Positions 2,263 through 60,290 of a stretch of 64,000 nt of DNA are shown here, piece after piece. A model generated the notes under the pieces. The model did no database searches. It was given only the letters and a program-made list of their open reading frames with translations, and had not been told where the DNA came from. A program made the position numbers and the translations under genes. The stretch comes from Malacoraja senta (taxonomy: Eukaryota), in NCBI GenBank assembly GCA_038087875.1, contig CM075995.1:7628001-7692000 (forward strand). Direction: 5' to 3'. How positions within the stretch are numbered: the first letter of the stretch is position 1; each line of letters opens with the position of its first letter.

Positions 2263-3375
2263 AGCAGTGTTGCAGCAGTAGCAGTGTTGTAGCAGTGTTG
2301 TAGCAGTGTTGCAGTAGTGTTGCAGTGGTGTTGTAGCAGTGTTTCAGCAGTGTTGCAGTTGCAGTAGTGTTGTAACAGTGTTGTAGCAGTGTTGTAACAG
2401 TGTTGCAGTGGTGTTGTAGCAATGTTGTAGCAGTGTTGTAGCAGTGTTGCAGTTGTAGCAGTGGTGTAGTAGTGTTGTAGCAGTGTTGCAATGGTGTTGC
2501 AGTAGTGTTGTAACAGTGTTGTAGCAGTGTTGCAGTGGTGTTGCAGTCAAGAGATTTTATTGTCATGTGTCCCAGATAGGACAATTAAATTCTTGCTTGC
2601 TGCAGCACAATAGAATGTTGTAAGCATAAATACAGGACAGATCAGTGTGTCTATATAGCATAGAACGTTATATACACACGAATACACAGATAAAGTGCAT
2701 TAGGCTGTTATAGTTCAGTTTGATGGCGAGTTTAATAGCCTGATGGCTGTGGGGAAGCAGCTGTTCCTGAACCTGCATGTTGCAGATTTCAGGCTCCTGT
2801 ACCTTCTACCTGAAGGCAGCGGGGAGATGAGTGTGGTGGCCAGGATGGTGTGGGTCCTTGATGATGTTGACTGCCTTTTTGAGGCAGCGACTGCGATAGA
2901 TCCCCTCGATGGTGGGAGGTCAGAGCCGGTGATGGACTGGGCAGTGGTCACAGCTTTCTGCATTCTTTTCCGCTCCTGGACGCTCAAGTTGCCGAACCAA
3001 GCCACGATGCAACCGGTCAGCATGCTCTCTACTGTGCACAAGGCAGTGGTGTTGTAGCGGTGTTGCAGTAGCGGTGTTGCAAGTACGGTGTTGCACGGGT
3101 TGCAGCAGCGCGTTGCAGTAGCGGTGTTGCAAAAGTAGTGTTGCAGTCGCAGTGTTGCAGTCGCAGTGTTGCAGTCGCAGTGTTGCAGTCGCAGTGTTGC
3201 AGAAGCAGTGTTGCAGTCGCAGTGTTGCAGTAGCAGTTGCAGCAGTAGTGTTGCAATAGTGGCGTTGCAGCAGCGGCGTTGCAGTAGCGGTGTTGCAAAA
3301 GTAGTGTTGCACTTGCAGTTGCAGTGTTGCAGTCGCAGTGTTGCAGAAGCAGCGTTGCAGTAGCAGTGTTGCTGA
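2263..3375. repeat. Degenerate GCAGTGTT(GTA/GCA) minisatellite split by a LINE fragment
   Basis: Tandem ~11-14-nt units at 2263-2547 and 3043-3375. Confidence 0.85.
2548..3042 (-). mobile_element. Rex1/Babar-like LINE 3' fragment
   Basis: Translation VESMLTGCIVAWFG...LPSGRRYRSLK...RFRNSCFPTAIRLLN followed by a TGACAATAAA 3' tail. Confidence 0.75.
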
Positions 3376-3414
3376 AGTGTGTGCAATGTTACATCTGACA
3401 TTAAGCTCTGCATC

Positions 3415-4110
3415 TCCCCCCCACCCCCTCCCCCCGCGAGCTGCGTGCGGGACGTGCCGGCGCCGGCGCCGCCTGCTGCAGGGGGCGCTCTGCTGCCGCT
3501 CAGCGTCGGTGCCAGCGTCACGCGGGTCAGTGCCGGCGCCGAACGTGCCGCGTCGCACGCCGCCCTGACGTCAGCGTCAGTGTCAGTGCCGAACGTGCGC
3601 GTCGCACGCTGCCCTGACGTCTGTGTCAGTGTCAGTGTCAGTGCCGAACGTGCCGCGTCGCACGCCGCCTGGTGGGCGGGGGCGGGGGGGCAGGCGCTCC
3701 TCCGCGACTGCAGGGGCGCTGCCGCTGCCGCTGCCGCTGACTTCCCCGCCCGGCGACGGCCGCCGCCTCCAGTCAGTCAGTCTCTCCCACAACCGCCGTC
3801 GCCGCCGCCGCCGCCTCAGCCTCATCGCTGCCCCGGGGACGGACAGACGGCGAGACTCGACGGACGGGTCGCTGCTCCCTCACCAGTCGCCAGCTCCAGG
3901 CCGCAGGTGAGGAGGGCAGGGGAGGGGAGGGGAGGGGAGGGTCAGCGTCAGCTGTCAAGAAGGTGGTGACCGTCAGCCTGGCCCGGACCAAGTGACCCCC
4001 CCCCCCCCCCCCGCCGGTACACACTCTCCCCTGAGTCTCCCGATACAGTCTCCCGGAGTTTAATCCTCCCTCAGTCCACAAAAGCCTCCCCTTCTCGCCC
4101 GCCCCTCCCC
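3415..4110 (+). promoter_or_regulatory. SIRT5: CpG-island promoter of SIRT5
   Basis: Strongly GC/CpG-rich unique sequence, CRE TGACGTCA at 3566-3573, GC boxes near 3674-3690, overlapping the first exon. Confidence 0.75.
3770..3906 (+). other. SIRT5: SIRT5 non-coding exon 1 (start approximate)
   Basis: Strong donor CAG|GTGAG at 3906/3907 within the CpG island; no ATG; the next acceptor is at 6330. Confidence 0.65.
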
Positions 4111-8338: not shown

Positions 8339-10139
8339 CAGAGCTGCCAACTCCCACGCATCGAGCGTGAGACTCACGCATTTCGCCCAATTCTCACACT
8401 GATCACAGAATTTCTCACGCTCTGTCGTGAGAAATTTTGTGATCACCGAGAATTTCAAAACTAATAACTGCTTGTGTGCGCGTCTGTTGACAAGACAGCA
8501 GCACTCTTATTCTCTGTTACTCTCACTTGACCGAACTGGCACACACCACCAAACCATGTCCCCATGCAAATTTACATTGAACGACACGGCAGTGAATGAG
8601 TGTCACCCAGCGCAGCAAGTAAGGCCATGTCCTGCTCCCAGCGGCAGTCGGATTTGTGGGAAGCGGTCACATGAGCGAGGCCGGCGAGGAGAGAGGTACA
8701 TGGGCGGCGGAACGGGGGTGGGGGGGGATTTTTTGGCTAGACATATTTCAATGTCTCCAGCTTTGGATGAGGCGCTGCTGTGCTCTGAGCAACCTGGTTG
8801 TGGATGTTGGGATACCTGGGGAGGAGGGAGGGATGGAAGCAGAAGCAGCAGCGGGGTCAGATGCGGACGGGGAGCCGGGGTTGGCGAGTGTTTGCCGGGC
8901 TGGCGAGTTGCTCACTGCAGCTCCGGCCATGGAGCAGCCTCAGTGCAAGAGTCCCGGGCCGTCGGAAGCGTTGCGCCGCTGCCGTGAGAGTCTCTGTGCC
9001 GAATTCGCATGGACCAGGCTGCGGCTCGGTGCATCCTGGAGGGCAACCAGTGGCTGCTGGAAATAGCTACCAAGCACTGGGTAGAAGCGGTGGAAGATAG
9101 TGGCCTTCAAATGGGGGTGGTTGGAGAAAGCATCCTGCTTGCCTGCTAGATTTTCACTTACTGTATCTGCAGGAAAAATGTTCCCGATGTTGGGGGAGTT
9201 CAGAACCAGGAGTCACAGTTTAAGAATAAGGGGTAGGCTATTTAGGACTGAGATGAGGAAAAACTTTCTTCACCCAGAGAGTTGTGAATCTGTGGAATTC
9301 TCTGCCACAGAAGGCAGTGGAGGCCAATTCACTGGATGTTTTCAAGAGAGTGTTACATTTTGCTCTTGGGGCTAGCGAAATCAAGGAATAAAACAGGAAA
9401 GAGGTACTGATTTTAGATGAAAAGTCATGATCATATTGAATGGCAGTGCTGGCTCGAAGGGCCGAATGGCCTATTCCTGCACCTATTTTCTATGTTTCTA
9501 GGCTTGAGTATATGGCAGTAAAACTCGACCACTTGATTTTGAAGCATTCATGCATGGTGGAGGTATAATGTAGTCATAGAGTGATACAGTGTGAAAAACA
9601 GGCCCTTCGGCCCAAACTTGCCCACACCCGCCAACATGTCCCAGCTACACTACCTGCTTTTGGTCCATATCCCTCCAACCTGTCCCATCCATGTATCAGT
9701 ATTTCTTGAATGTGGGATAGTCCCTGCCTCAACTACCTTCTCTGGCAGCTTGTTCCATACACCCACCACCTTTTGTGGGGGAAAAAAGTTACTCTTAAAA
9801 ATACTTTAAACAAAAACATTGAAATCATACTTTTACAATGCACTAAAACATGATTTTAATACATAAAATTTCAAAAAGGCACCCCTCCCACACCCTCCCC
9901 CCACTCCACCCTCGCCAGGTACCCCAAGGACAGTGATCAGTAATCGCTCAGCCCCTCCCACTTCAAAAAACGCTCCGCGGACCCTGGTTCAGATGGAGAG
10001 CACTGCCAAATGTGAGCGAGGAACTGAAGCCAGTTGTCCGTGATGTCTGGATCCCAATGCTCAGCGCTTCCTGTTTCGGAGTTGGCTAATGTTATTGATT
10101 TGTAATTAGTTGACAAAACCTTAATTTATTAATACGGAA

Positions 10140-11639
10140 TGTAAACAGGCACCTGAGACAATGTATGATTTATAATAAGTTGTCAGTACATCCTAGCTGC
10201 TCAGACTGACGGTGCTGGGAATAAGCATTAGTGTAAGTTATAGTGGGGTGGAGTTAGTGATGCTGGCTATGTGTGATTGGTTCACATGCATCAGCAATCT
10301 ACATCCTTCCCCCTAAAGATTATATGTGGAAAGGAAATGTATTAAACATACTCGCCATATCTGTCTGGTGTCTACTAACACGGCCCGAGCGCGTGCAGAC
10401 CCAACCATCCCCTCCCTCACCTGAAGGATTAGACGGAGAGCTGGAGGTGAAAATGGACCGGGAGAGCTTGTGGTGACCGAGAGGGGAAACATGCGGTAGG
10501 TGAAACCCCGTGGTTAGTGGAGATCGAGGGTCGTGGGGGGGGGTGCAAGGCATGCGGGGACGGGTGGGAGACATTGCCAAAGGCGGCTGGAACTGGAGCG
10601 GCGGAGCATAGGGATCAGCAGGTGTTGGTCGGGGCTCCTTCACAGCAAGCAGGTGTTGTCGACTTCTCCGGTATACCGCTCCCTCACAGTCCACAAGGTA
10701 CGATCGCGGCTCATCAGTCGGGCGTACAACAGTGCCCAGACGAGAATGTCCAGTTGAAGTTCATAGACGGACGACCTGGCCCGGCAGTAGATCAGAGCTC
10801 CTGAGACGGCCAGATTTAACGCTCGATGAAGCTGTGCATGCATGCAGAACCGCCGAACTTGTCGATCCCATAGACAGTTCGCATGAAACCAAAACGATCA
10901 ATTTGACGGGCCTCACTAGGCAACGAACATACACAGATAACAGCCGATTTATGACCCAAGCTAGTCAAGCAGTTCACAGTGGTCCTCCGAAGAGATGTCC
11001 TAACTGCAGTTATCTACACAACAGACAATCCGCCTGCCCTGCCCTCAGGAAGGCATGCAATTACTGCAAAAAGCTAAATCACATTGCCTCTGTCTGTCGG
11101 GCTGCAATTCGGGCCCGAGGAAAAGAATGCGCCCAGCCCAAGTCTAATCTCAATTTTTTGCAACGAGACAGCAACATACTGCCTCCCCAATTCCAGCTCG
11201 AAACCGCCCCCGAATACAGCCAATAACTCGCAAGATGACCCGACTGTTTACACGTTACAGCATGCTGCTGCCAAGAATTCTGATCCAACCGTGACGATAT
11301 CTGTAAACAATGTTGATTTTGGCGCGAAATTAGACACGGGGGCGAAGGTTAACACTATGTCAATCAACCTCTTTAACAAGATTAGAGCTAACGAGCCACT
11401 CATCAAGGACAAATCCCACTTCTGACACCATGTAAACAGGCACCTGAGACAGTGTATGATTTAAACACATCTTTAATCAGCACTGTAACTTGGCAGCGTT
11501 TGAGGACAATAAGTTGTCAGTACATCCTAGCTGCTCAGACTGACGGTGCTGGGAATAAGCGTTAGTGTAAGTGTTATAGTGGGGTGGAGTTAGTGATGCT
11601 GGCTATGTGTGGATGGTTCACATGCATCATCAATCTACA
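10140..11639 (-). mobile_element. Non-autonomous Gypsy-like LTR element with internal deletion and inversion
   Basis: LTRs TG...CA at 10140-10303 and 11431-11639; 5-bp TSD CGGAA; minus-strand PBS TGGTGTCAGAAGTGGGATT (tRNA-Leu-like); PPT AGGGGGAAGGA; integrase C-terminus on -, gag zinc knuckles and protease LDTGA on +. Confidence 0.9.
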
Positions 11640-34400: not shown

Positions 34401-35032
34401 ATAACTGAAATTGTTGGCAGTCCTGTTCTGTGTTTCTTGCAAGCAAAATTAAACGTTTGACCTTAAAGTATACCACCGGGGCAGATGAGGCGTCAAAGGT
34501 TTGTTTAGAGTTTAGAGATGCAGTGTAGAAACAGGCCCACTGAGTCCGTGCCGACCGACGATCCCCGCACACTAACGCTACTTGATACACGCCAGGGACA
34601 GTTTACATTTATACCAAGCCAATTAACCTATAAACCTGCACGTCTTTGGAGTGTGGGAAGGAACCGGAAGTCCCAGAGTAAAGTCACGGGGAGAAAGTAC
34701 AAACTCCGTGCAGGCAGCACCTGTAGTCGGGATCGAATCTGGGTCTCTGTAAGGCAGCAACTCTACCGCTGCGCCACTGTGCTGCCCTGTTTAGTTGGCA
34801 GTTTTTTTTTTTTATTGTCACGTGTACTGAGGTCCAGTGAAGAGCTTTTTGTTGCGTGCTACCCAGTCAAAGACTATACACGATTACAATCAATCCAACC
34901 ACAGTGTACAGATACAAGGTAAAGGGCATAACATTTAGTGCAAAATAAATTCCGAATAAAGATACTTCAGAGGTCTCCAAAAGATGGGTGGGAGGTCAGG
35001 ACCACCCTCTAGTTGTTGGTAGGACGGTTCAG

Positions 35033-35232
35033 NNNNNNNNNNNNNNNNNNNNNNNNNNNNNNNNNNNNNNNNNNNNNNNNNNNNNNNNNNNNNNNNNNNN
35101 NNNNNNNNNNNNNNNNNNNNNNNNNNNNNNNNNNNNNNNNNNNNNNNNNNNNNNNNNNNNNNNNNNNNNNNNNNNNNNNNNNNNNNNNNNNNNNNNNNNN
35201 NNNNNNNNNNNNNNNNNNNNNNNNNNNNNNNN
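35033..35232. other. Assembly gap (200 N)
   Basis: Run of n. Confidence 1.
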
Positions 35233-35258
35233 ACAATAAGTTGTTGTGCTTTTTTTAG

Positions 35259-46876: not shown

Positions 46877-47589
46877 CTGCAGAACAAGGGACAGAATATC
46901 AATATTTGCAGTATGCATCCCTGCCTTTTAAAATCTGTCCAGCAAAGTTTAAAAATAAACATAGAAACATAGAAAATAGGTGCAGGAGGAGGCCATTCAG
47001 CCCTTCGAGCCAGCACCGCCATTCATTGTGATCATGGCTGATCGTCCCCAATCAATAACCCGTGCCTGCCTTCTCCCCATATCCCTTGATTCCACCAGCC
47101 CCTAGAGCTCTATCTAACTCTCTCCTAAACCCATCCAGTGACTTGGCCTCCACTGCCCTCTGTGGCAGGGAATTCCACAAATTCACAACTCTCTGGGTGA
47201 AAAAGTTTTTTCTCACCTCAGTCTTAAATGGCCTCCCCTTTTTTCTAAGACTGTGGCCCCTGGTTCTGGACTCGCCCAACATTGGGAACATTTTTCCTGC
47301 ATCTAGCTTGTCCAGTCCTTTTATAATTTTATATGTTTCTATACGACAAACATCGAGGCCAAAAAGCACATTTTCAAAATCACTTTCCCCTCACTCCATC
47401 AACATCTTTCCCCAAATATAACATGGTGCCCAATACTGGACAGAGTGCTGGAGTAACTCAGCGGGTCAGGCAGCATCTGTGGAGAACATGGATAGGTGAC
47501 GTTTCACAGAGTGCTGGAGTAACTCAGCGGGTCAGGCAGCATCTCTGGAGAACATGGATAGGTGACATTTCGGGTTGGGACGCTTCTTC

Positions 47590-48370
47590 AGAGCAAGTCA
47601 TGGATTGCTCATCAACGCAGGTTTCTACCCTGGAGCAGCGGTGCAGCAGATTGCGGACTTTAGGAGGGCACAACAACCGAGGACGTACACGCCACTGGGG
47701 ATAAATGGGACTGCAGTGGATAGGGCGAGCAGCTTTAAATACCTGGGAGTCCACATCACAGAGGATCTGACATGGACATCACACGCTGCCGCACTGGTGA
47801 GTAAGGCAAGGCAGCGCCTTTACCACCTCAGGCAGCTGAGGAAATTCAGAGTGTCTCTGAGGATCCTCCAGTGCTTCTACTCTGGGGCTGTAGAAAGCTT
47901 CCTGTCCGGCAACATCACAATCTGGTTCGGGAACAGTTCTGCCCAGGACAGGAAGGCTCCGCAGAGAGTAGTGCGTTCGGCCGAACGCACCATGGGAACT
48001 ACACTCGCCCCCCCCTGCAGGACCCATACACCAGGAGGTGCAGATCCAGAGCCAGCAACATTATGGGGGACCCCTACCCCCCCAGCAACGGACTGTTCCA
48101 GCTGCCACGGTCAGGCAAACGCCTCCTCTGTCACGCTGTGAAAACAGAGCGGATGAGACGGAGTTTCTTCCCACAGGCCGTCAGGACTGTAAACTCTGAT
48201 CTCACCAGAGACTAAATACTGTTGTGTTGTGTCTTTTTTTAACATGTAAATACTGGTTCTGTTCTGTTCTGTTGTTCTATAGTTTTTGCACAATCCGCAG
48301 GCATTGCCACTTTCATTTCACTCTACATCTTGTGTGTGTATGTGACAAATGAAGTTGACTTGACTTGACA
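47590..48370 (+). mobile_element. Rex1/Babar-like LINE 3' fragment
   Basis: FKYLGVHITEDLTW...KARQRLYHLRQLRKF...FYSGAVES; (GACTT)n tail. Related pieces near 31200-31475, 41800-42100 and 43778-44180. Confidence 0.8.
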
Positions 48371-54500: not shown

Positions 54501-55385
54501 GGTTGACACAACCTATACTATTGTTCCACTTTTGACTGGAGCTGAATACACTCAGTAATACGCAATCAGATTCCATCGTATTAATTCCATGCATTAATCT
54601 TAACTGTGAGCGGTGAGGTTGCCAAAATACCTCAGGAACATTGTCTGGGCAGAACCAGACTTGGTGATCCTTCCAGAGATTCAGTTCACAAACCATAGTC
54701 AGAATTGTAAAATATTTAATTATGATGACAGAGTCATAAGAGTCTTATAGTGTGGGAACTGTCCCTTCGGCCCAACCACACCACACTCCCCATCTACCCT
54801 GGTCCCCACCTGCCTGCTTTTGGCCCATATCCCTATAAATTTGTTCCATCCATGTACCTGTCTAAATGTTTCTTAAATCTCATGATAGTCCCTGCCTCAA
54901 CTACATCCTCTGAGGGATAAGGGCCAAATGCAGGCAGGTGGGACAACTGTAGAGGGAGCATGTGGGCAAGTGTGGCTGTGGTAGTTCTGCTCTGTGATAG
55001 ACCACATCTGGACTATTGTTTACAGTTTTGGTCTCCTAATTTGAGGAAGGACATAGAAACATAGAAACATAGAAAGTAGGTGCGAGAGTAGACCACCAGG
55101 CCCATCGAGCCCGCACCGCCATTCGCTCATGGCTGAACACTAAACAGACACCCTTACCCACAAACAGTAGACACAAGACACAGAACACAAGACACTACCC
55201 TCCCCTTTATATCGCTATCACCCCTCTCCACCCCAAGAACCGCGTGATCTCCTGGGGGAGGCAAAAAACGGATAAAAACCCATGTCCAATTCGGGAAAAA
55301 AATCCGGGAAATTCCTCTCCGACCCCAATCCAGGCGATCGACACTTGTCCAGGAGATCACTCAGGTCTTACTATACTAACCATAC

Positions 55386-58280
55386 CTAGGTCCATATCCC
55401 TGCCCTCTCCCCGTAGCCCCTTATCCCCTTGGCAGCTAAAAAACCATCTATTTTAGACTTAAATATATTTAATGTTTCTGCTTCCACTGCTCCCTGGGGC
55501 AGTGAATTCCATAAATTAACCACCCTCTGGGTGAAGAAGTTCTTCCTCATCTCAGTTTTAAAAGAGCCCCCTCTTATTCTACAACTATGTCCCCTAGTTC
55601 TAGTTTCCCCGATCATTGGGAACATCCTCGGTGCATCCACCCGATCAAGGCCCCTCACGATCTTATATGTTTCAATGAGATCGCCTCTCATTCTTCTAAA
55701 CTCCAAAGAGTAGAGTTCCAGCCTACTTAACCTTTCCTCATATGTCAATCCCCTCATTGCAGGAATTAATCTTGTAAACCTTCGCTGCACTGCCTCCAGG
55801 GCCAGTACATCCTTTCTTAAGTATGGACCCCAGAACTGTACACAGTATTCCAAATGTGGTCTCACTAATACTGTGTACAGCTGCAGCAAGACCTCCGTGT
55901 TTTTATACTCAATCCCCCTAGCAATAAAGGCCAAAACTCCATTGGCCTTCCTGATTGCTTGCTGCACCTGCATACTAACTTTTAGTGATTCATGTACTAC
56001 TACCCCTAGATCCCTTTGCGTTGCATTACAACGCAGCTCCACCTCATTTAGAAAATAACTTGCCCTATCATTTTTTTTCCCAAAGTGAATGACTTCACAT
56101 TTATTAGTATTAAATTTCATCTGCCAAGTTGTTGCCCACTCACCTAGCTTATCTATATCCTTTTGCAGACTCTTCCTATCCTCCTCATCCCCTACTTTTC
56201 CTCCCATTTTTGTATCGTCCGCAAATTTTGATATATTACACTTGGTTCCCTCCTCCAAATCATTTATATAAATTGTGAACAACTGGGGTCCCAGCACCGA
56301 CCCTTGCGGAACCCCGCTAGTTACCGGTTGCCATCCCGAGTATGAACCATTTATCCCCACTCTCTGCTTCCTATTTGTTAGCCAATCCTCTACCCATGCT
56401 AATATATTACCCCCAATCCCATAATTTTTTATTTTTAGCAATAGTCTCTTATGTGGCACCTTGTCAAAAGCCTTTTGGAAGTCCAAGTATACCACATCCA
56501 CCGGTTCCCCTTTATCCACCCGGGTTGTTACTTCCTCAAAGAATTCGAGCAGATTCGTTAAACAGGACTTCCCCTTCACAAAACCATGCTGGTTCTGTCC
56601 GATGAAGTCATGTTTATCCAAGTGCCCCGTTAGTGTTTCTTTAATAATTGTCTCTAACATTTTACCCACCACCGATGTTAGACTAACCGGTCTATAGTTA
56701 CCCGCCTTCTGTTTACTTCCTTTTTTAAATATAGGTGTTACATTGGCCATTTTCCAATCCACTGGGACCGTTCCTGCCTCCAGGGAGTTTTGGAAAATTA
56801 TCACCAATGCATCCACAATCCCCACCGCTATCTCCCTCAAGACCCTTGGATGTAATCCATCAGGCCCAGGGGATTTATCCTCCTTCAGTCTCATTAATTT
56901 CCCTAATACCACCTCCTTGGTGATCTTAATAATATTTAGCTCCTCCATTCCTACCGCCCCCTGTTTATCCAGCGTTGGAATATTTTTTGTGTCTTCTATG
57001 GTGAAGACTGATACAAAATACTCGTTTAATGCCTTTGCCATTTCCATGTTCCCCACCAACAACTCTCCAGTCTCACCCTCCAATGGACCAACGTTCACCT
57101 TAGCCACCCTTTTTCTTTTTATATAGCTATAAAAACTCTTACTATTAGTTTTTATGTTGTTCGCTAAATTCCTTTCATAGTCTATTTTCCCCGTCTTAAT
57201 TAATCTCTTAGTTATTTTTTGCTGACCTTTAAATGCTTCCCAATCCTCTACCCTCCCACTATCTCTAGCTACCTTATATGCCCTTGCCTTCAGCCGAATA
57301 CTATCCTTTATAGTTTTACTGAGCCATGGCTGACTGTTCTTTCCCTTACCCCTTTTTTTCTTCATAGGAATAAATTTTTCTTGAAGGTTATACAGTAGAT
57401 CCTTAAACGTACACCACTGCTCATGTACCGTCTTATTCTTGAGTCTGCTATCCCAGTCAACTTTGATCAGCTCAGTCCTCATACCTTCATAATCCCCCTT
57501 ATTTAGACTAAGTACCCTAGCCTGAGTTTCAACCTGCTCCCCTTCTATTTGAATATGGAATTCGACCATATTGTGGTCACTTGTTCCCAACGAGTCCCTA
57601 ACTATGACATTTTTAATTAATCCTGCTTCATTACACAGGACCAGATCCAAGATTGCCTCCCTCCTTGTCGGTTCTGTGACATACTGTTCTAGGAACCCGT
57701 CTCTAATACATTCTATAAACTCTTCCTCTAGTTTACCCTGCCCAGTTTGGTTTGCCCAATTAATATGAAAATTGAAGTCCCCCATGATTTCAGCAGTTCC
57801 CTTTTTACATGCGTCAACTATTTGCAGATTTATGTTCTGACTAACAGCGTCACAGCTATTTGGAGGTCTATAAATTACACCCACTAGTGTTTTTTTCCCC
57901 TTGTTATTCTCTATCTGTACCCAAGCTGTTTCACTATCCTGATCCTTCAATGCAATATCCTTCCTCTCTATTGCCGTTATTCCCTCCCTTATTAAAAGGG
58001 CCACCCCTCCTCCCTTTCTTTCCTGTCTATCTTTTCTAATTGTCGAGTACCCCTCTATATTTAACTCCCAATCCTGATCCCCTTGCAGCCATGTCTCCGT
58101 AATGGCCACGATATCATAACTATATGTACTTAATTGCACCGTTAATTCATTTATCTTATTTCGAATACTCCGTGCATTTAGATACAGCACTTTCAGATGA
58201 TTTTTACTACCCTTCCTTTCTGTTTTTGCCCCGTTTACATCTAGAGCTTTATCTTCACACATTCTGGATCCTCCTGTCAC
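55386..58280 (-). CDS. CR1 ORF2: APE endonuclease + reverse transcriptase
   Basis: YLNARS, ITETW, MGDFN, SDHN endonuclease motifs; [27 protein letters not shown] motifs; no stops over 964 codons; first ATG at 58262, frame open from 58394. Confidence 0.97.
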   Translation of the reverse strand: MTGGSRMCEDKALDVNGAKTERKGSKNHLKVLYLNARSIRNKINELTVQLSTYSYDIVAITETWLQGDQDWELNIEGYSTIRKDRQERKGGGVALLIREGITAIERKDIALKDQDSETAWVQIENNKGKKTLVGVIYRPPNSCDAVSQNINLQIVDACKKGTAEIMGDFNFHINWANQTGQGKLEEEFIECIRDGFLEQYVTEPTRREAILDLVLCNEAGLIKNVIVRDSLGTSDHNMVEFHIQIEGEQVETQARVLSLNKGDYEGMRTELIKVDWDSRLKNKTVHEQWCTFKDLLYNLQEKFIPMKKKRGKGKNSQPWLSKTIKDSIRLKARAYKVARDSGRVEDWEAFKGQQKITKRLIKTGKIDYERNLANNIKTNSKSFYSYIKRKRVAKVNVGPLEGETGELLVGNMEMAKALNEYFVSVFTIEDTKNIPTLDKQGAVGMEELNIIKITKEVVLGKLMRLKEDKSPGPDGLHPRVLREIAVGIVDALVIIFQNSLEAGTVPVDWKMANVTPIFKKGSKQKAGNYRPVSLTSVVGKMLETIIKETLTGHLDKHDFIGQNQHGFVKGKSCLTNLLEFFEEVTTRVDKGEPVDVVYLDFQKAFDKVPHKRLLLKIKNYGIGGNILAWVEDWLTNRKQRVGINGSYSGWQPVTSGVPQGSVLGPQLFTIYINDLEEGTKCNISKFADDTKMGGKVGDEEDRKSLQKDIDKLGEWATTWQMKFNTNKCEVIHFGKKNDRASYFLNEVELRCNATQRDLGVVVHESLKVSMQVQQAIRKANGVLAFIARGIEYKNTEVLLQLYTVLVRPHLEYCVQFWGPYLRKDVLALEAVQRRFTRLIPAMRGLTYEERLSRLELYSLEFRRMRGDLIETYKIVRGLDRVDAPRMFPMIGETRTRGHSCRIRGGSFKTEMRKNFFTQRVVNLWNSLPQGAVEAETLNIFKSKIDGFLAAKGIRGYGERAGIWT

Positions 58281-58369
58281 ATTTTGATTTTCCGTTTCCC
58301 CACTGATACCCTGCTCTATTTCCTCTACCCCTGCCGTTATTACCCCCCTTGATACCTCCCCCCCGCTAC

Positions 58370-59323
58370 TTAGTTTAAAGACCTCTCTACTGCCCTAGTT
58401 ATATGATTTGCCAGGACCCCAGTCCCAGCACCGTTCAGGTGAAGTCCGTCCTTACAGAACAGATCCCCCCTGTCCCAGTACTGGTGCCAGTGGCCCAAGA
58501 AACCAAACCCATTTTTCCCACACCAGTCTTTGAGCCACGCATTCAGCTTTTTAATTTTTCGTACCCTCGCCGATTTGGCCCGTGGCTCAGGTAGCAATCT
58601 GGAGATCAGTACCCTCGAGGTTCTGCTTTTTAATTTATTCCCTAACTGCTCAAACTCGTTCAGCAGATCCTCCTTCCTCGTCCTTCCTATGTCATTGGTC
58701 CCCACATGGACCACGACCACTGGATCCTCCCCCTCACTCTGCAAATTTCTCTCCAGCATCGCAGAGATATCCTTAACCCTAGCACCGGGTAGGCAACACA
58801 GCCTTCGGGACATGTTCTGCTGGCCGCAGAGAACCTTATCTACCCCCCGAATAATACTATCCCCTATCACCACGGCATTTCTTCTAACTCCCCCCTCTTG
58901 AATGGCCCCCTGATCCACGGTGCTGCAGCCAGGTTGCTCATCCCTCCCACAGCCCCTGATCCCGTCCTCACATTGAGTAAGAGCCTCGGTCATGCTCGTC
59001 AGGGACAAGGGCTGTGGCTCCTGCCGCATCTCCTCCTGGTTCCCCCTACCTGCCTCACTTATGGCCACACCTTCCTTTCCCTGCTCACTAACTACTGAAT
59101 TAGTTAAACTGGTCGGTGTGACCATCCCCTGGCACAAAACATCCAGGTAATACTCCCCCTCCCTGATGCACCGCAGCGTATGAAGTTGGGTCTCCAGCTC
59201 ATCAATGCGGAGCTCGAGTTCCGCTAGCTTCAAACACTTACTGCAGCTGTAGGGATCATCTACATCAATGGTGTCGACAATTTCCCACATCTCACAGTAT
59301 TGGCACATCTCCTGGCCGCCCAT
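58370..59323 (-). CDS. CR1 ORF1: zinc finger/leucine zipper + SGNH esterase-like domain
   Basis: CQYC...CSKC, heptad LAELELRIDELETQL, GDS / PGA / GTND / DGLH blocks; 317 aa. Confidence 0.95.
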   Translation of the reverse strand: MGGQEMCQYCEMWEIVDTIDVDDPYSCSKCLKLAELELRIDELETQLHTLRCIREGEYYLDVLCQGMVTPTSLTNSVVSEQGKEGVAISEAGRGNQEEMRQEPQPLSLTSMTEALTQCEDGIRGCGRDEQPGCSTVDQGAIQEGGVRRNAVVIGDSIIRGVDKVLCGQQNMSRRLCCLPGARVKDISAMLERNLQSEGEDPVVVVHVGTNDIGRTRKEDLLNEFEQLGNKLKSRTSRVLISRLLPEPRAKSARVRKIKKLNAWLKDWCGKNGFGFLGHWHQYWDRGDLFCKDGLHLNGAGTGVLANHITRAVERSLN

Positions 59324-59752
59324 CTTATATAAGTAATTAACTGGTCCTATTAAGAATCCCCTACCCGGATTACTGTATTAAAACACCCCTTATTTATATA
59401 ATCCTACCTCCTATAAATGGGAAAGTACTTACCCCAGCCGTAAATTACCTACTGGTTTGGCTGTCTAGTGGTAATTTCGTCCGCTCTTTCTGTCTGGTCC
59501 ACTGCTCCCTTGCAGTGCGTGGCCTACCTCTTAGCCCGTTAGCCTCTCGAGCCGCGGCTCCGTCCTTCCTCCCTCGGCGACAACCCTGGGCCGCACCTGT
59601 GGCACCTGTGGCACCGCGGTCGTGACGTCCCTTCCGTTCCAACTGCCACTGATTACTCGCTACACTCTGATTACCTCGCTGCACTCTGATTGCTGCCTAA
59701 CAGCGCCTGATTACCTCGCTGCACTCCGATTGCCTCGCTGCACTCTGTTCTG

Positions 59753-60290
59753 CATCCTTGTGATTGAGGCAGTGCAGCGTAGGTTCACGAGATTGATCCC
59801 TGGGATGGCGGGACTGTCATACGAGGAAAGATTGAAAAGACTAGGCTTGTATTCACTGGAGTTTAGAAGGATGAGGGGGGATCTTATAGACACATATAAA
59901 ATCATAAAAGGACTGGACAAGCTAGATGCAGGACAAATATTCCCAATGTTGGGCGAGTCCAGAACCAGGGGCCACAGTCTTAGAATAAAGGGGAGGTCAT
60001 TTAAAACTGAGGTGAGGAAAAACTTTTTCACGCAGAGAGTTGTGAATTTGTGAAATTCCCTGCCACAGAGGACAGTGGAGGCCAATTCACTGGATGGATT
60101 TAAGAGAGAGTTAGATAGAGCTCTAGGGGCTAGTGGAGTCAAGGGATATGGGGAGAGTCAAGGGATATGGGGAGAAGGCAGACACGGGTTATTGATAGGG
60201 GACGATCAGCCATGATCACAATGAATGGCGGTGCTGGCTTGAAGGGCCGAATGGCCTCCTCCTGCACCTATTTTCTATGTTTCTATGATT
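59753..60290 (+). mobile_element. Host CR1-like fragment (continues from 55025-55054)
   Basis: Rejoined sequence matches the uninterrupted copy from 19353 onward. Confidence 0.9.

Follow-up and report, generated by a model that had tools for sequence, protein, structure and literature searches.

The window, by which we mean the whole stretch of 64,000 nucleotides of Malacoraja senta DNA analysed here, contains on its minus strand a full-length young CR1 LINE (55051..59752, the 5' end being approximate and placed from the flank). In 5' to 3' order the element comprises: a 5' UTR (59324..59752) with a 19-bp tandem array at 59649-59747; ORF1 (58370..59323), which starts at ATG 59323 and encodes 317 aa with an SGNH esterase at aa 152-300 (Pfam PF13472, E 7.6e-14); the ORF2 frame (55386..58394), with Pfam matches to an APE endonuclease at about 58178-57573 (PF03372, PF14529) and to a reverse transcriptase (RT) at about 56720-56073 (PF00078); and a 3' tail (55051..55075) of three copies of an 8-bp unit (TTCTATGT) without poly(A). 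The N-terminus of ORF1, as read from the sequence, carries a CxxC...CxxC arrangement and a leucine-rich stretch (zf/lz type). The best PDB match of ORF1 is the ZfL2-1 esterase 4C1B (E 6e-44), and its homologues are vertebrate, with the motif DGLHL as against DGLHP in ZfL2-1. An ORF1 with zf/lz and SGNH esterase, an ORF2 with APE and RT, and short tandem 3' repeats (8 bp) without poly(A) are shared with the canonical vertebrate CR1s, listed as Type IVB, CR1 subgroup 7, in the available part of PMC4120745 and as esterase-type CR1 in that of PMC13343379.

The element is very young: 29 other copies are 98.7-99.6% identical to it over the aligned part, and its 361-bp junction is matched essentially fully by the best 40 of 705 candidates in the same genome. 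It interrupts an older piece of CR1 RT that lies on the other strand (59753-60053 and from 55050 downwards), whose two flanks join as one plus-strand RT reading; no clear target-site duplication was seen beyond 3-4 shared bases. Elsewhere the window holds many 3' CR1 fragments; a plus-strand open frame with Cys/His knuckle-like motifs (10612-11226), gag-like by eye and without a Pfam match; a plus-strand stretch (47566-48141) that resembles the C-terminus of an RT protein from another LINE and has a PF09004 match; a low-complexity tandem repeat with long open frames on the minus strand (2715-3776); and a run of N near 35000-35250, either an assembly gap or a withheld stretch.

On the minus strand ORF1 ends in TCT TTA AAC TAA. 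The slippery heptamer U_UUA_AAC (TTTAAAC; 58373..58379) stands there in X_XXY_YYZ phase and adjoins the ORF1 stop (58370..58372), which is UAA here, while all three stop codons occur in other lineages. No stop interrupts the -1 frame between 58394 and 55389 (1002 codons, its stop being at 55388-55386), and the first in-frame ATG of ORF2 (58260..58262, minus strand), which is not conserved among lineages, is codon 38 after the slip. A slip at the heptamer would give a product of 317 + 995 = 1312 aa (995 aa counted after the slip) with the junction ...SLN/LSSGG.... Eight bases 3' of the heptamer begins the series G7-AGGTATCAA-G6-TAATAACGGCA-G4...G3...G4. The preliminary description of this DNA had reported the heptamer in its phase directly before the stop, ORF2 as a stop-free -1 frame with its first ATG at 58262, the series of G-runs, and a fusion of about 1312 aa; re-reading of the minus strand and its frames bears out all four, and the comparison of lineages given below supports the reading of the last as a putative slip product. 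The junction has two marks of a frameshift site, namely an X_XXY_YYZ heptamer in zero-frame phase and an open -1 frame leading into a functional ORF. Within the whole element there are 23 heptamers of X_XXY_YYZ type; a lone heptamer is within chance, while its conservation at one place across lineages is beyond it.

Near-identical copies of the window family say nothing about selection, and other lineages were therefore compared. A genome-wide pattern of esterase catalytic motif, 56 nt, and heptamer with stop found TTTAAAC-TRR at 8491 sites, against 126 sites at which the first heptamer base differs and 96 at which a letter of the Leu codon does, counts that leave out AAT variants; the variants listed (100 of the 126 and all 96) are by eye scattered single mutants of the same families. 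From 155 loci ten lineages were set by hand, after automatic clustering had split many copies into singletons; one copy of each, together with seven metagenome loci, gave 17 representatives chosen as the most intact copies. None of the 17 departs from the heptamer at any of its seven bases or from T at the first base of the stop, while the codon before TTA varies (TCT, ACT, GGT, GTT, GAT, CAT, TGT or GCT), TAA, TAG and TGA all occur as the ORF1 stop, and upstream identity runs from 32 to 96% (32-58% among the deep lineages over 71 nt upstream). TTA makes up some 8% of Leu codons in CR1 ORF1s, so that keeping T|TTA|AAC would be unlikely even were Leu-Asn required: given xLN, its chance by ORF1 codon usage is 0.0105 per lineage, or about 1e-8 for five independent lineages. 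The 107 unselected copies outside the window family (family A) were collected by a junction finder that needed a near-match to the site; the exact heptamer is present in 70 of the 79 that fall outside a deliberate exception set. All ten loci retrieved with a distant protein as query have heptamer and stop, and in seven the linker is open to the endonuclease. The heptamer, whose conservation at synonymous positions the preliminary description had named as a comparison to make, is thus kept there in related lineages, and judged by these alignments the CR1 heptamer site is under selection at the nucleotide level.

The same junction is found in other animals. Among 80 metagenome loci, 17 have a score of at least 100 bits and 13 of these extend to the junction; TTTAAAC is present in 12 of the 13, and the -1 frame of the heptamer is read on in six of the seven among them that have a placed endonuclease start. 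At the protein level, xLN is the C-terminus of 42 of the 46 ORF1 homologues that extend to the end, with 11 different residues as x; they include sequences from sharks, rays, a teleost, Xenopus, turtles and lizards. In a further set of 88 cluster representatives with a short tail (out of 135 new ones, the search profile having been built from LN-ending proteins and slightly favouring them) 42 end in LN, at 25, 26, 27, 32 or 39 residues from the catalytic motif, which ties LN to the stop rather than to the fold. Another nine of the 88 end in GN, eight as QGN and one as SGN (P0238, P0241, P0247, P0251, P0255, P0258, P0275, P0299 and P0310). From the protein alone, a QGN end fits G_GGA_AAC as the putative coding site; no relatives of the GN-ending group were found in the viral and prokaryote contig collections searched. 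One protein, P0071, has esterase, endonuclease and RT in a single frame of 1054 aa, joined at ...YLK-LVGQG... with no Met before the endonuclease; LN ends are found in 106 of the 120 members of its family. P0071 has the appearance of a single inserted base at the slip site, with the same -1 geometry; being one sequence only, it may reflect an error of assembly or insertion.

The linker that joins slip site and endonuclease (58200..58373, minus strand; 170 nt after the stop) is free of stops in the -1 frame of the window element, against 9 and 5 in the remaining frames. The -1 frame is kept in 58 of 87 unselected copies outside family A in which the endonuclease could be placed (binomial p 2e-10 against 1/3, the copies not being independent); the 29 out-of-frame linkers were taken as decay. 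Codons 3-32 of the 107 copies contain 66 stops in the -1 frame versus 216 and 219 in the others, and upstream of the first ATG the unselected copies have 23 versus 170 and 219. Modal linkers of 140, 167, 170, 173, 221 and 305 nt in this genome, as well as linkers of 74, 86, 128 and 254 nt in other animals, all lead into the -1 frame. Three families (B-long, D-long and E) have one common ORF2 behind different ORF1s, with linkers of 305, 221 and 173 nt, all of them -1; at L037, L204 and L212 the recombination joints of ORF2-sharing lineages sit in the linker, with the -1 frame kept. The endonuclease tree used here is a quick one, several rows of which contain frameshifted translation, and it serves only for the common ORF2 of these three families and for the distance of the readthrough group discussed below. 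What had been claimed for the window, an ORF2 in the -1 frame reached without a stop, thus extends to related CR1s, in which this frame is kept behind linkers of 74-305 nt and the linker is kept open across lineages.

By the same kind of comparison some lineages do without an AUG before the endonuclease. In the sister family B-short (1592 copies, 140-nt linker) the linker is open and lacks ATG up to the catalytic Asn of the endonuclease in 20 of 20 copies examined, and of the five copies with no stop in 554 codons, four have their earliest Met at codon 267, by which most of the endonuclease has been passed. The locus L091, from another animal, is likewise without ATG before the endonuclease. 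Contigs of related organisms (runs X1, X6 and X13) have a 3-nt deletion upstream of ATG 58262 that keeps the frame, and the ATG itself reads GTG in the single contig of run X17 covering that site; this GTG could still act as a weak start. Family A keeps the in-frame ATG in all 30 copies read. The overlapping AUG of SART1 type is absent from the window family, which reads UAA-GUA, and was found only in sister family E (L209-L212, L273-L281), where UAAUG stands directly behind the heptamer with its AUG in the ORF2 frame. Since this UAAUG overlaps the stop behind the heptamer, frameshifting and SART1-like reinitiation could both act there.

The conservation of heptamer, stop, -1 frame and open linker, together with the existence of AUG-less lineages, makes a -1 frameshift likely. 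On sequence evidence we regard the signal at the CR1 ORF1/ORF2 junction as real and deeply conserved, and we put at roughly 0.85 the probability that the ORF2 of CR1 is made as an esterase-endonuclease-RT fusion by programmed -1 frameshifting at U_UUA_AAC. In most cases translation would end at UAA with the 317-aa ORF1p as its product; in a minority the ribosome would slip by one base and produce the 1312-aa fusion, and the slip would set a high ORF1p:ORF2p ratio, as it does for gag-pol. The least certain step is the pause, which may arise from slow termination at the adjacent stop together with a fixed G-run at +11 to +15; the G-run might act as an arm of a G-quadruplex in some lineages or as a protein-binding site, which we favour over a conserved hairpin or pseudoknot. 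Because the element has no protease, the fusion would presumably stay whole or be cut by host enzymes.

An open, AUG-less linker would also be accounted for by termination-reinitiation, in which ribosomes would restart beside the ORF1 stop in the -1 frame, at an AUG or a non-AUG codon, and make ORF2p as a separate protein. The invariant position of the ORF1 stop agrees with this, as do the UAAUG of family E with its AUG in the ORF2 frame and the ATG at codon 38 of family A; changes of the start codon are tolerated in calicivirus reinitiation (PMC5972666) and L1 ORF2 initiation is AUG-independent (PMC5009743), according to the parts of these papers available. We nevertheless consider reinitiation unlikely: it leaves unexplained both a fixed seven-base X_XXY_YYZ heptamer at synonymous positions and the LN/GN switch, and UAAUG is confined to one lineage. 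In reinitiation of the calicivirus type the motif UGGGA lies at a fixed distance upstream of the stop. Here it occurs in just 6 of the 17 representatives and at varying places (-55 to -96), and a TURBS-like motif was accordingly rejected as not conserved.

It is very improbable that the junction is some other RNA signal (a 3' splice site, transcriptional slippage or a packaging signal) and that ORF2p comes from an altered transcript. TTTAAACTAG ends in AG in several lineages, and P0071 resembles a one-base insertion at the site, but the TAA and TGA lineages have no AG there, and pyrimidines make up 30-48% of the 33 nt upstream; as a candidate, a splice acceptor at the junction proved not to be conserved across the representatives. 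Runs of three bases are short for polymerase slippage, and those of the heptamer are just three bases long. A contig of run X1 covers 57900-59400 without a break or joint, and no indel is listed for it at the heptamer, although contigs drop rare forms and the RNA status of the run is guessed. Barely credible, and largely refuted, is the proposal that xLN* is a protein constraint of the last esterase helix with the DNA motif and frame as inherited by-products: an invariant Leu316 and nearly invariant Asn317 in the ORF1 homologue alignment agree with it, but the codons are fixed in spite of the rarity of TTA, LN tracks the stop over its 25 to 39 residues from the catalytic motif, esterases of the DGLHP (L2) type end in LN in one case of eight, the distant esterase LINEs end otherwise, and the open -1 linker is left unexplained.

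To return to programmed frameshifting and its possible stimulator, the G7 run of the window (58358..58364, minus strand) contains a downstream motif at +11 to +15 (58362-58358) that is conserved among lineages. G is present at +11 and +12 in 16 of 16 representatives and at +13 to +15 in 14, and 75 of 79 unselected copies have four or five G at these five positions. Position +11 falls on the third base of a Gly, Leu, Arg, Gln or Lys codon and is always G, against an ORF2 background of 0.54. In the window family the G-rich tract (58298..58364, minus strand), a possible G-quadruplex, reaches a G4Hunter score of 2.2, the highest window nearby; its loops are long (9-16 nt) and ViennaRNA with G4 enabled does not choose the quadruplex. 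In 14 of the 16 lineages the stretch behind the site belongs to the top 2% of local windows by G content; G4Hunter scores are 1.2 or more in 13 and the three-tier G4 pattern occurs in two. Folding across the 16 lineages showed neither a conserved downstream hairpin (z below -2 in one lineage) nor a long-range duplex, no pairing partner of the junction being common to them. With no conserved hairpin, G4 or long-range partner, the frameshift efficiency may be low.

The preliminary description had suggested a G-quadruplex as stimulator; the conserved G-run upholds one half of this, and the canonical three-tier G4, limited as it is to two lineages, does not uphold the other. According to the part of PMC3919603 available, G4-driven -1 frameshifting in reporters reaches about 7% at best, with 1-nt loops and 6-8 nt spacing, and falls with loop length. 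The window family resembles these reporters in combining UUUAAAC with G-tracts at a spacing (8 nt) within that optimum; the reporters are synthetic and reach their best value with 1-nt loops, against loops of 9-16 nt here. In view of that ceiling and of the scarcity of three-tier patterns, a G-quadruplex is possible at the junction of the window family; as a general stimulating mechanism it is doubtful. We prefer the putative reading that the fixed G-tract acts with the adjacent stop codon. As of 2016, natural G4-stimulated frameshifting was 'not currently known but anticipated' (PMC5009743, in the part available).

The 80 metagenome loci also include distant esterase LINEs that are without the heptamer. 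The catalytic motif was located in 20 of the 26 that have a placed endonuclease, and in 14 of these LINEs a stop lies 33 residues behind the motif; it is TGA in 13 of the 14, and the next base is C in all 14 (CTA or CCA). Frame 0 and stop-free linkers of 198-381 nt were found in 11 of the 14. A single in-frame TGA followed by CTA or CCA is seen in L106, L109, L110, L113, L117, L120, L123, L124, L125, L161 and others; most linkers of this group contain Met, and that of L120 has none. UGA-CUA is a leaky stop context, and the arrangement suggests these LINEs as candidates for stop-codon readthrough. The group is placed far from the CR1 lineages in the quick endonuclease tree, and it independently suggests that the fused product may be what is selected.

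Among the known systems close to CR1 are retroviral gag-pol and ORF1a-1b of the coronavirus IBV, which likewise have the polymerase ORF in the -1 frame behind a structural ORF and, in IBV, the identical heptamer in the identical phase. CR1 differs in that no conserved pseudoknot or hairpin was found, in that the 0-frame stop adjoins the heptamer with the G-run at +11 to +15, and in having no protease. The primary CR1 papers of 1997-2003 (Haas 1997, a turtle study of 1997, Kapitonov and Jurka 2003) lie outside the literature searched and may already remark on the overlap; within that literature no report of CR1 frameshifting was found, including the portions of PMC11835228, PMC4255032, PMC5006619 and PMC3905857 that it took in, and CR1 does not occur in the searched part of PMC5009743, where U_UUA_AAC and G_GGA_AAC are counted among the most shifty heptamers. 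In the main-text parts of PMC4120745 and PMC13343379 the word frameshift is absent and the mode of ORF2 translation is not given, though their supplements may annotate ORF overlaps; relative to the CR1s as presented there, the junction here carries a putative conserved recoding signal.

Recoding has been discussed for other non-LTR elements. The consulted part of a review (PMC5911963) states -1 frameshifting for Dictyostelium TRE5-A/TRE3-A, which belong to another clade and kingdom, have an unrelated ORF1, and are compared here by that statement and not by slip sites. For Paramecium non-LTR groups recoding of ORF2 is proposed from consensus sequences, as +1 frameshift or reinitiation (groups 1 and 2) or readthrough (group 3) (PMC5405496, in part); this is a ciliate clade, and the shift is +1, not -1. 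L1, with a 63-nt spacer, and SART1, with overlapping stop and start (PMC5972666, in part), share with CR1 a bicistronic LINE mRNA and scarce ORF2p; unlike the fusion that we favour for CR1, their proteins are separate and come from termination-reinitiation, proposed for L1 and shown for SART1.

Taken more widely, and only tentatively, esterase LINEs throughout animals might make an ORF1-ORF2 polyprotein by interchangeable recoding signals, namely the U_UUA_AAC slip in vertebrate CR1, a G_GGA_AAC slip in the QGN group and UGA-C readthrough in the distant clade, and the CR1 G-run might be the first case in nature of a G-quadruplex or G-tract that stimulates a productive frameshift. In most vertebrates CR1 dominates among the retrotransposons (PMC13343379, in the part available), and the question of how LINEs translate ORF2 has a partial answer for L1 and SART1 alone. 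If CR1 does frameshift, its predicted ORF2 protein would become an esterase-endonuclease-RT fusion instead of a protein starting at the first AUG, and the AUG-less 'ORF2s' of annotation would be explained. The junction would also join a small number of conserved frameshift sites in the nuclear genomes of vertebrates and would offer a candidate natural G-tract or G-quadruplex stimulator, and in the element itself a membrane-binding esterase would be physically tied to the RT.
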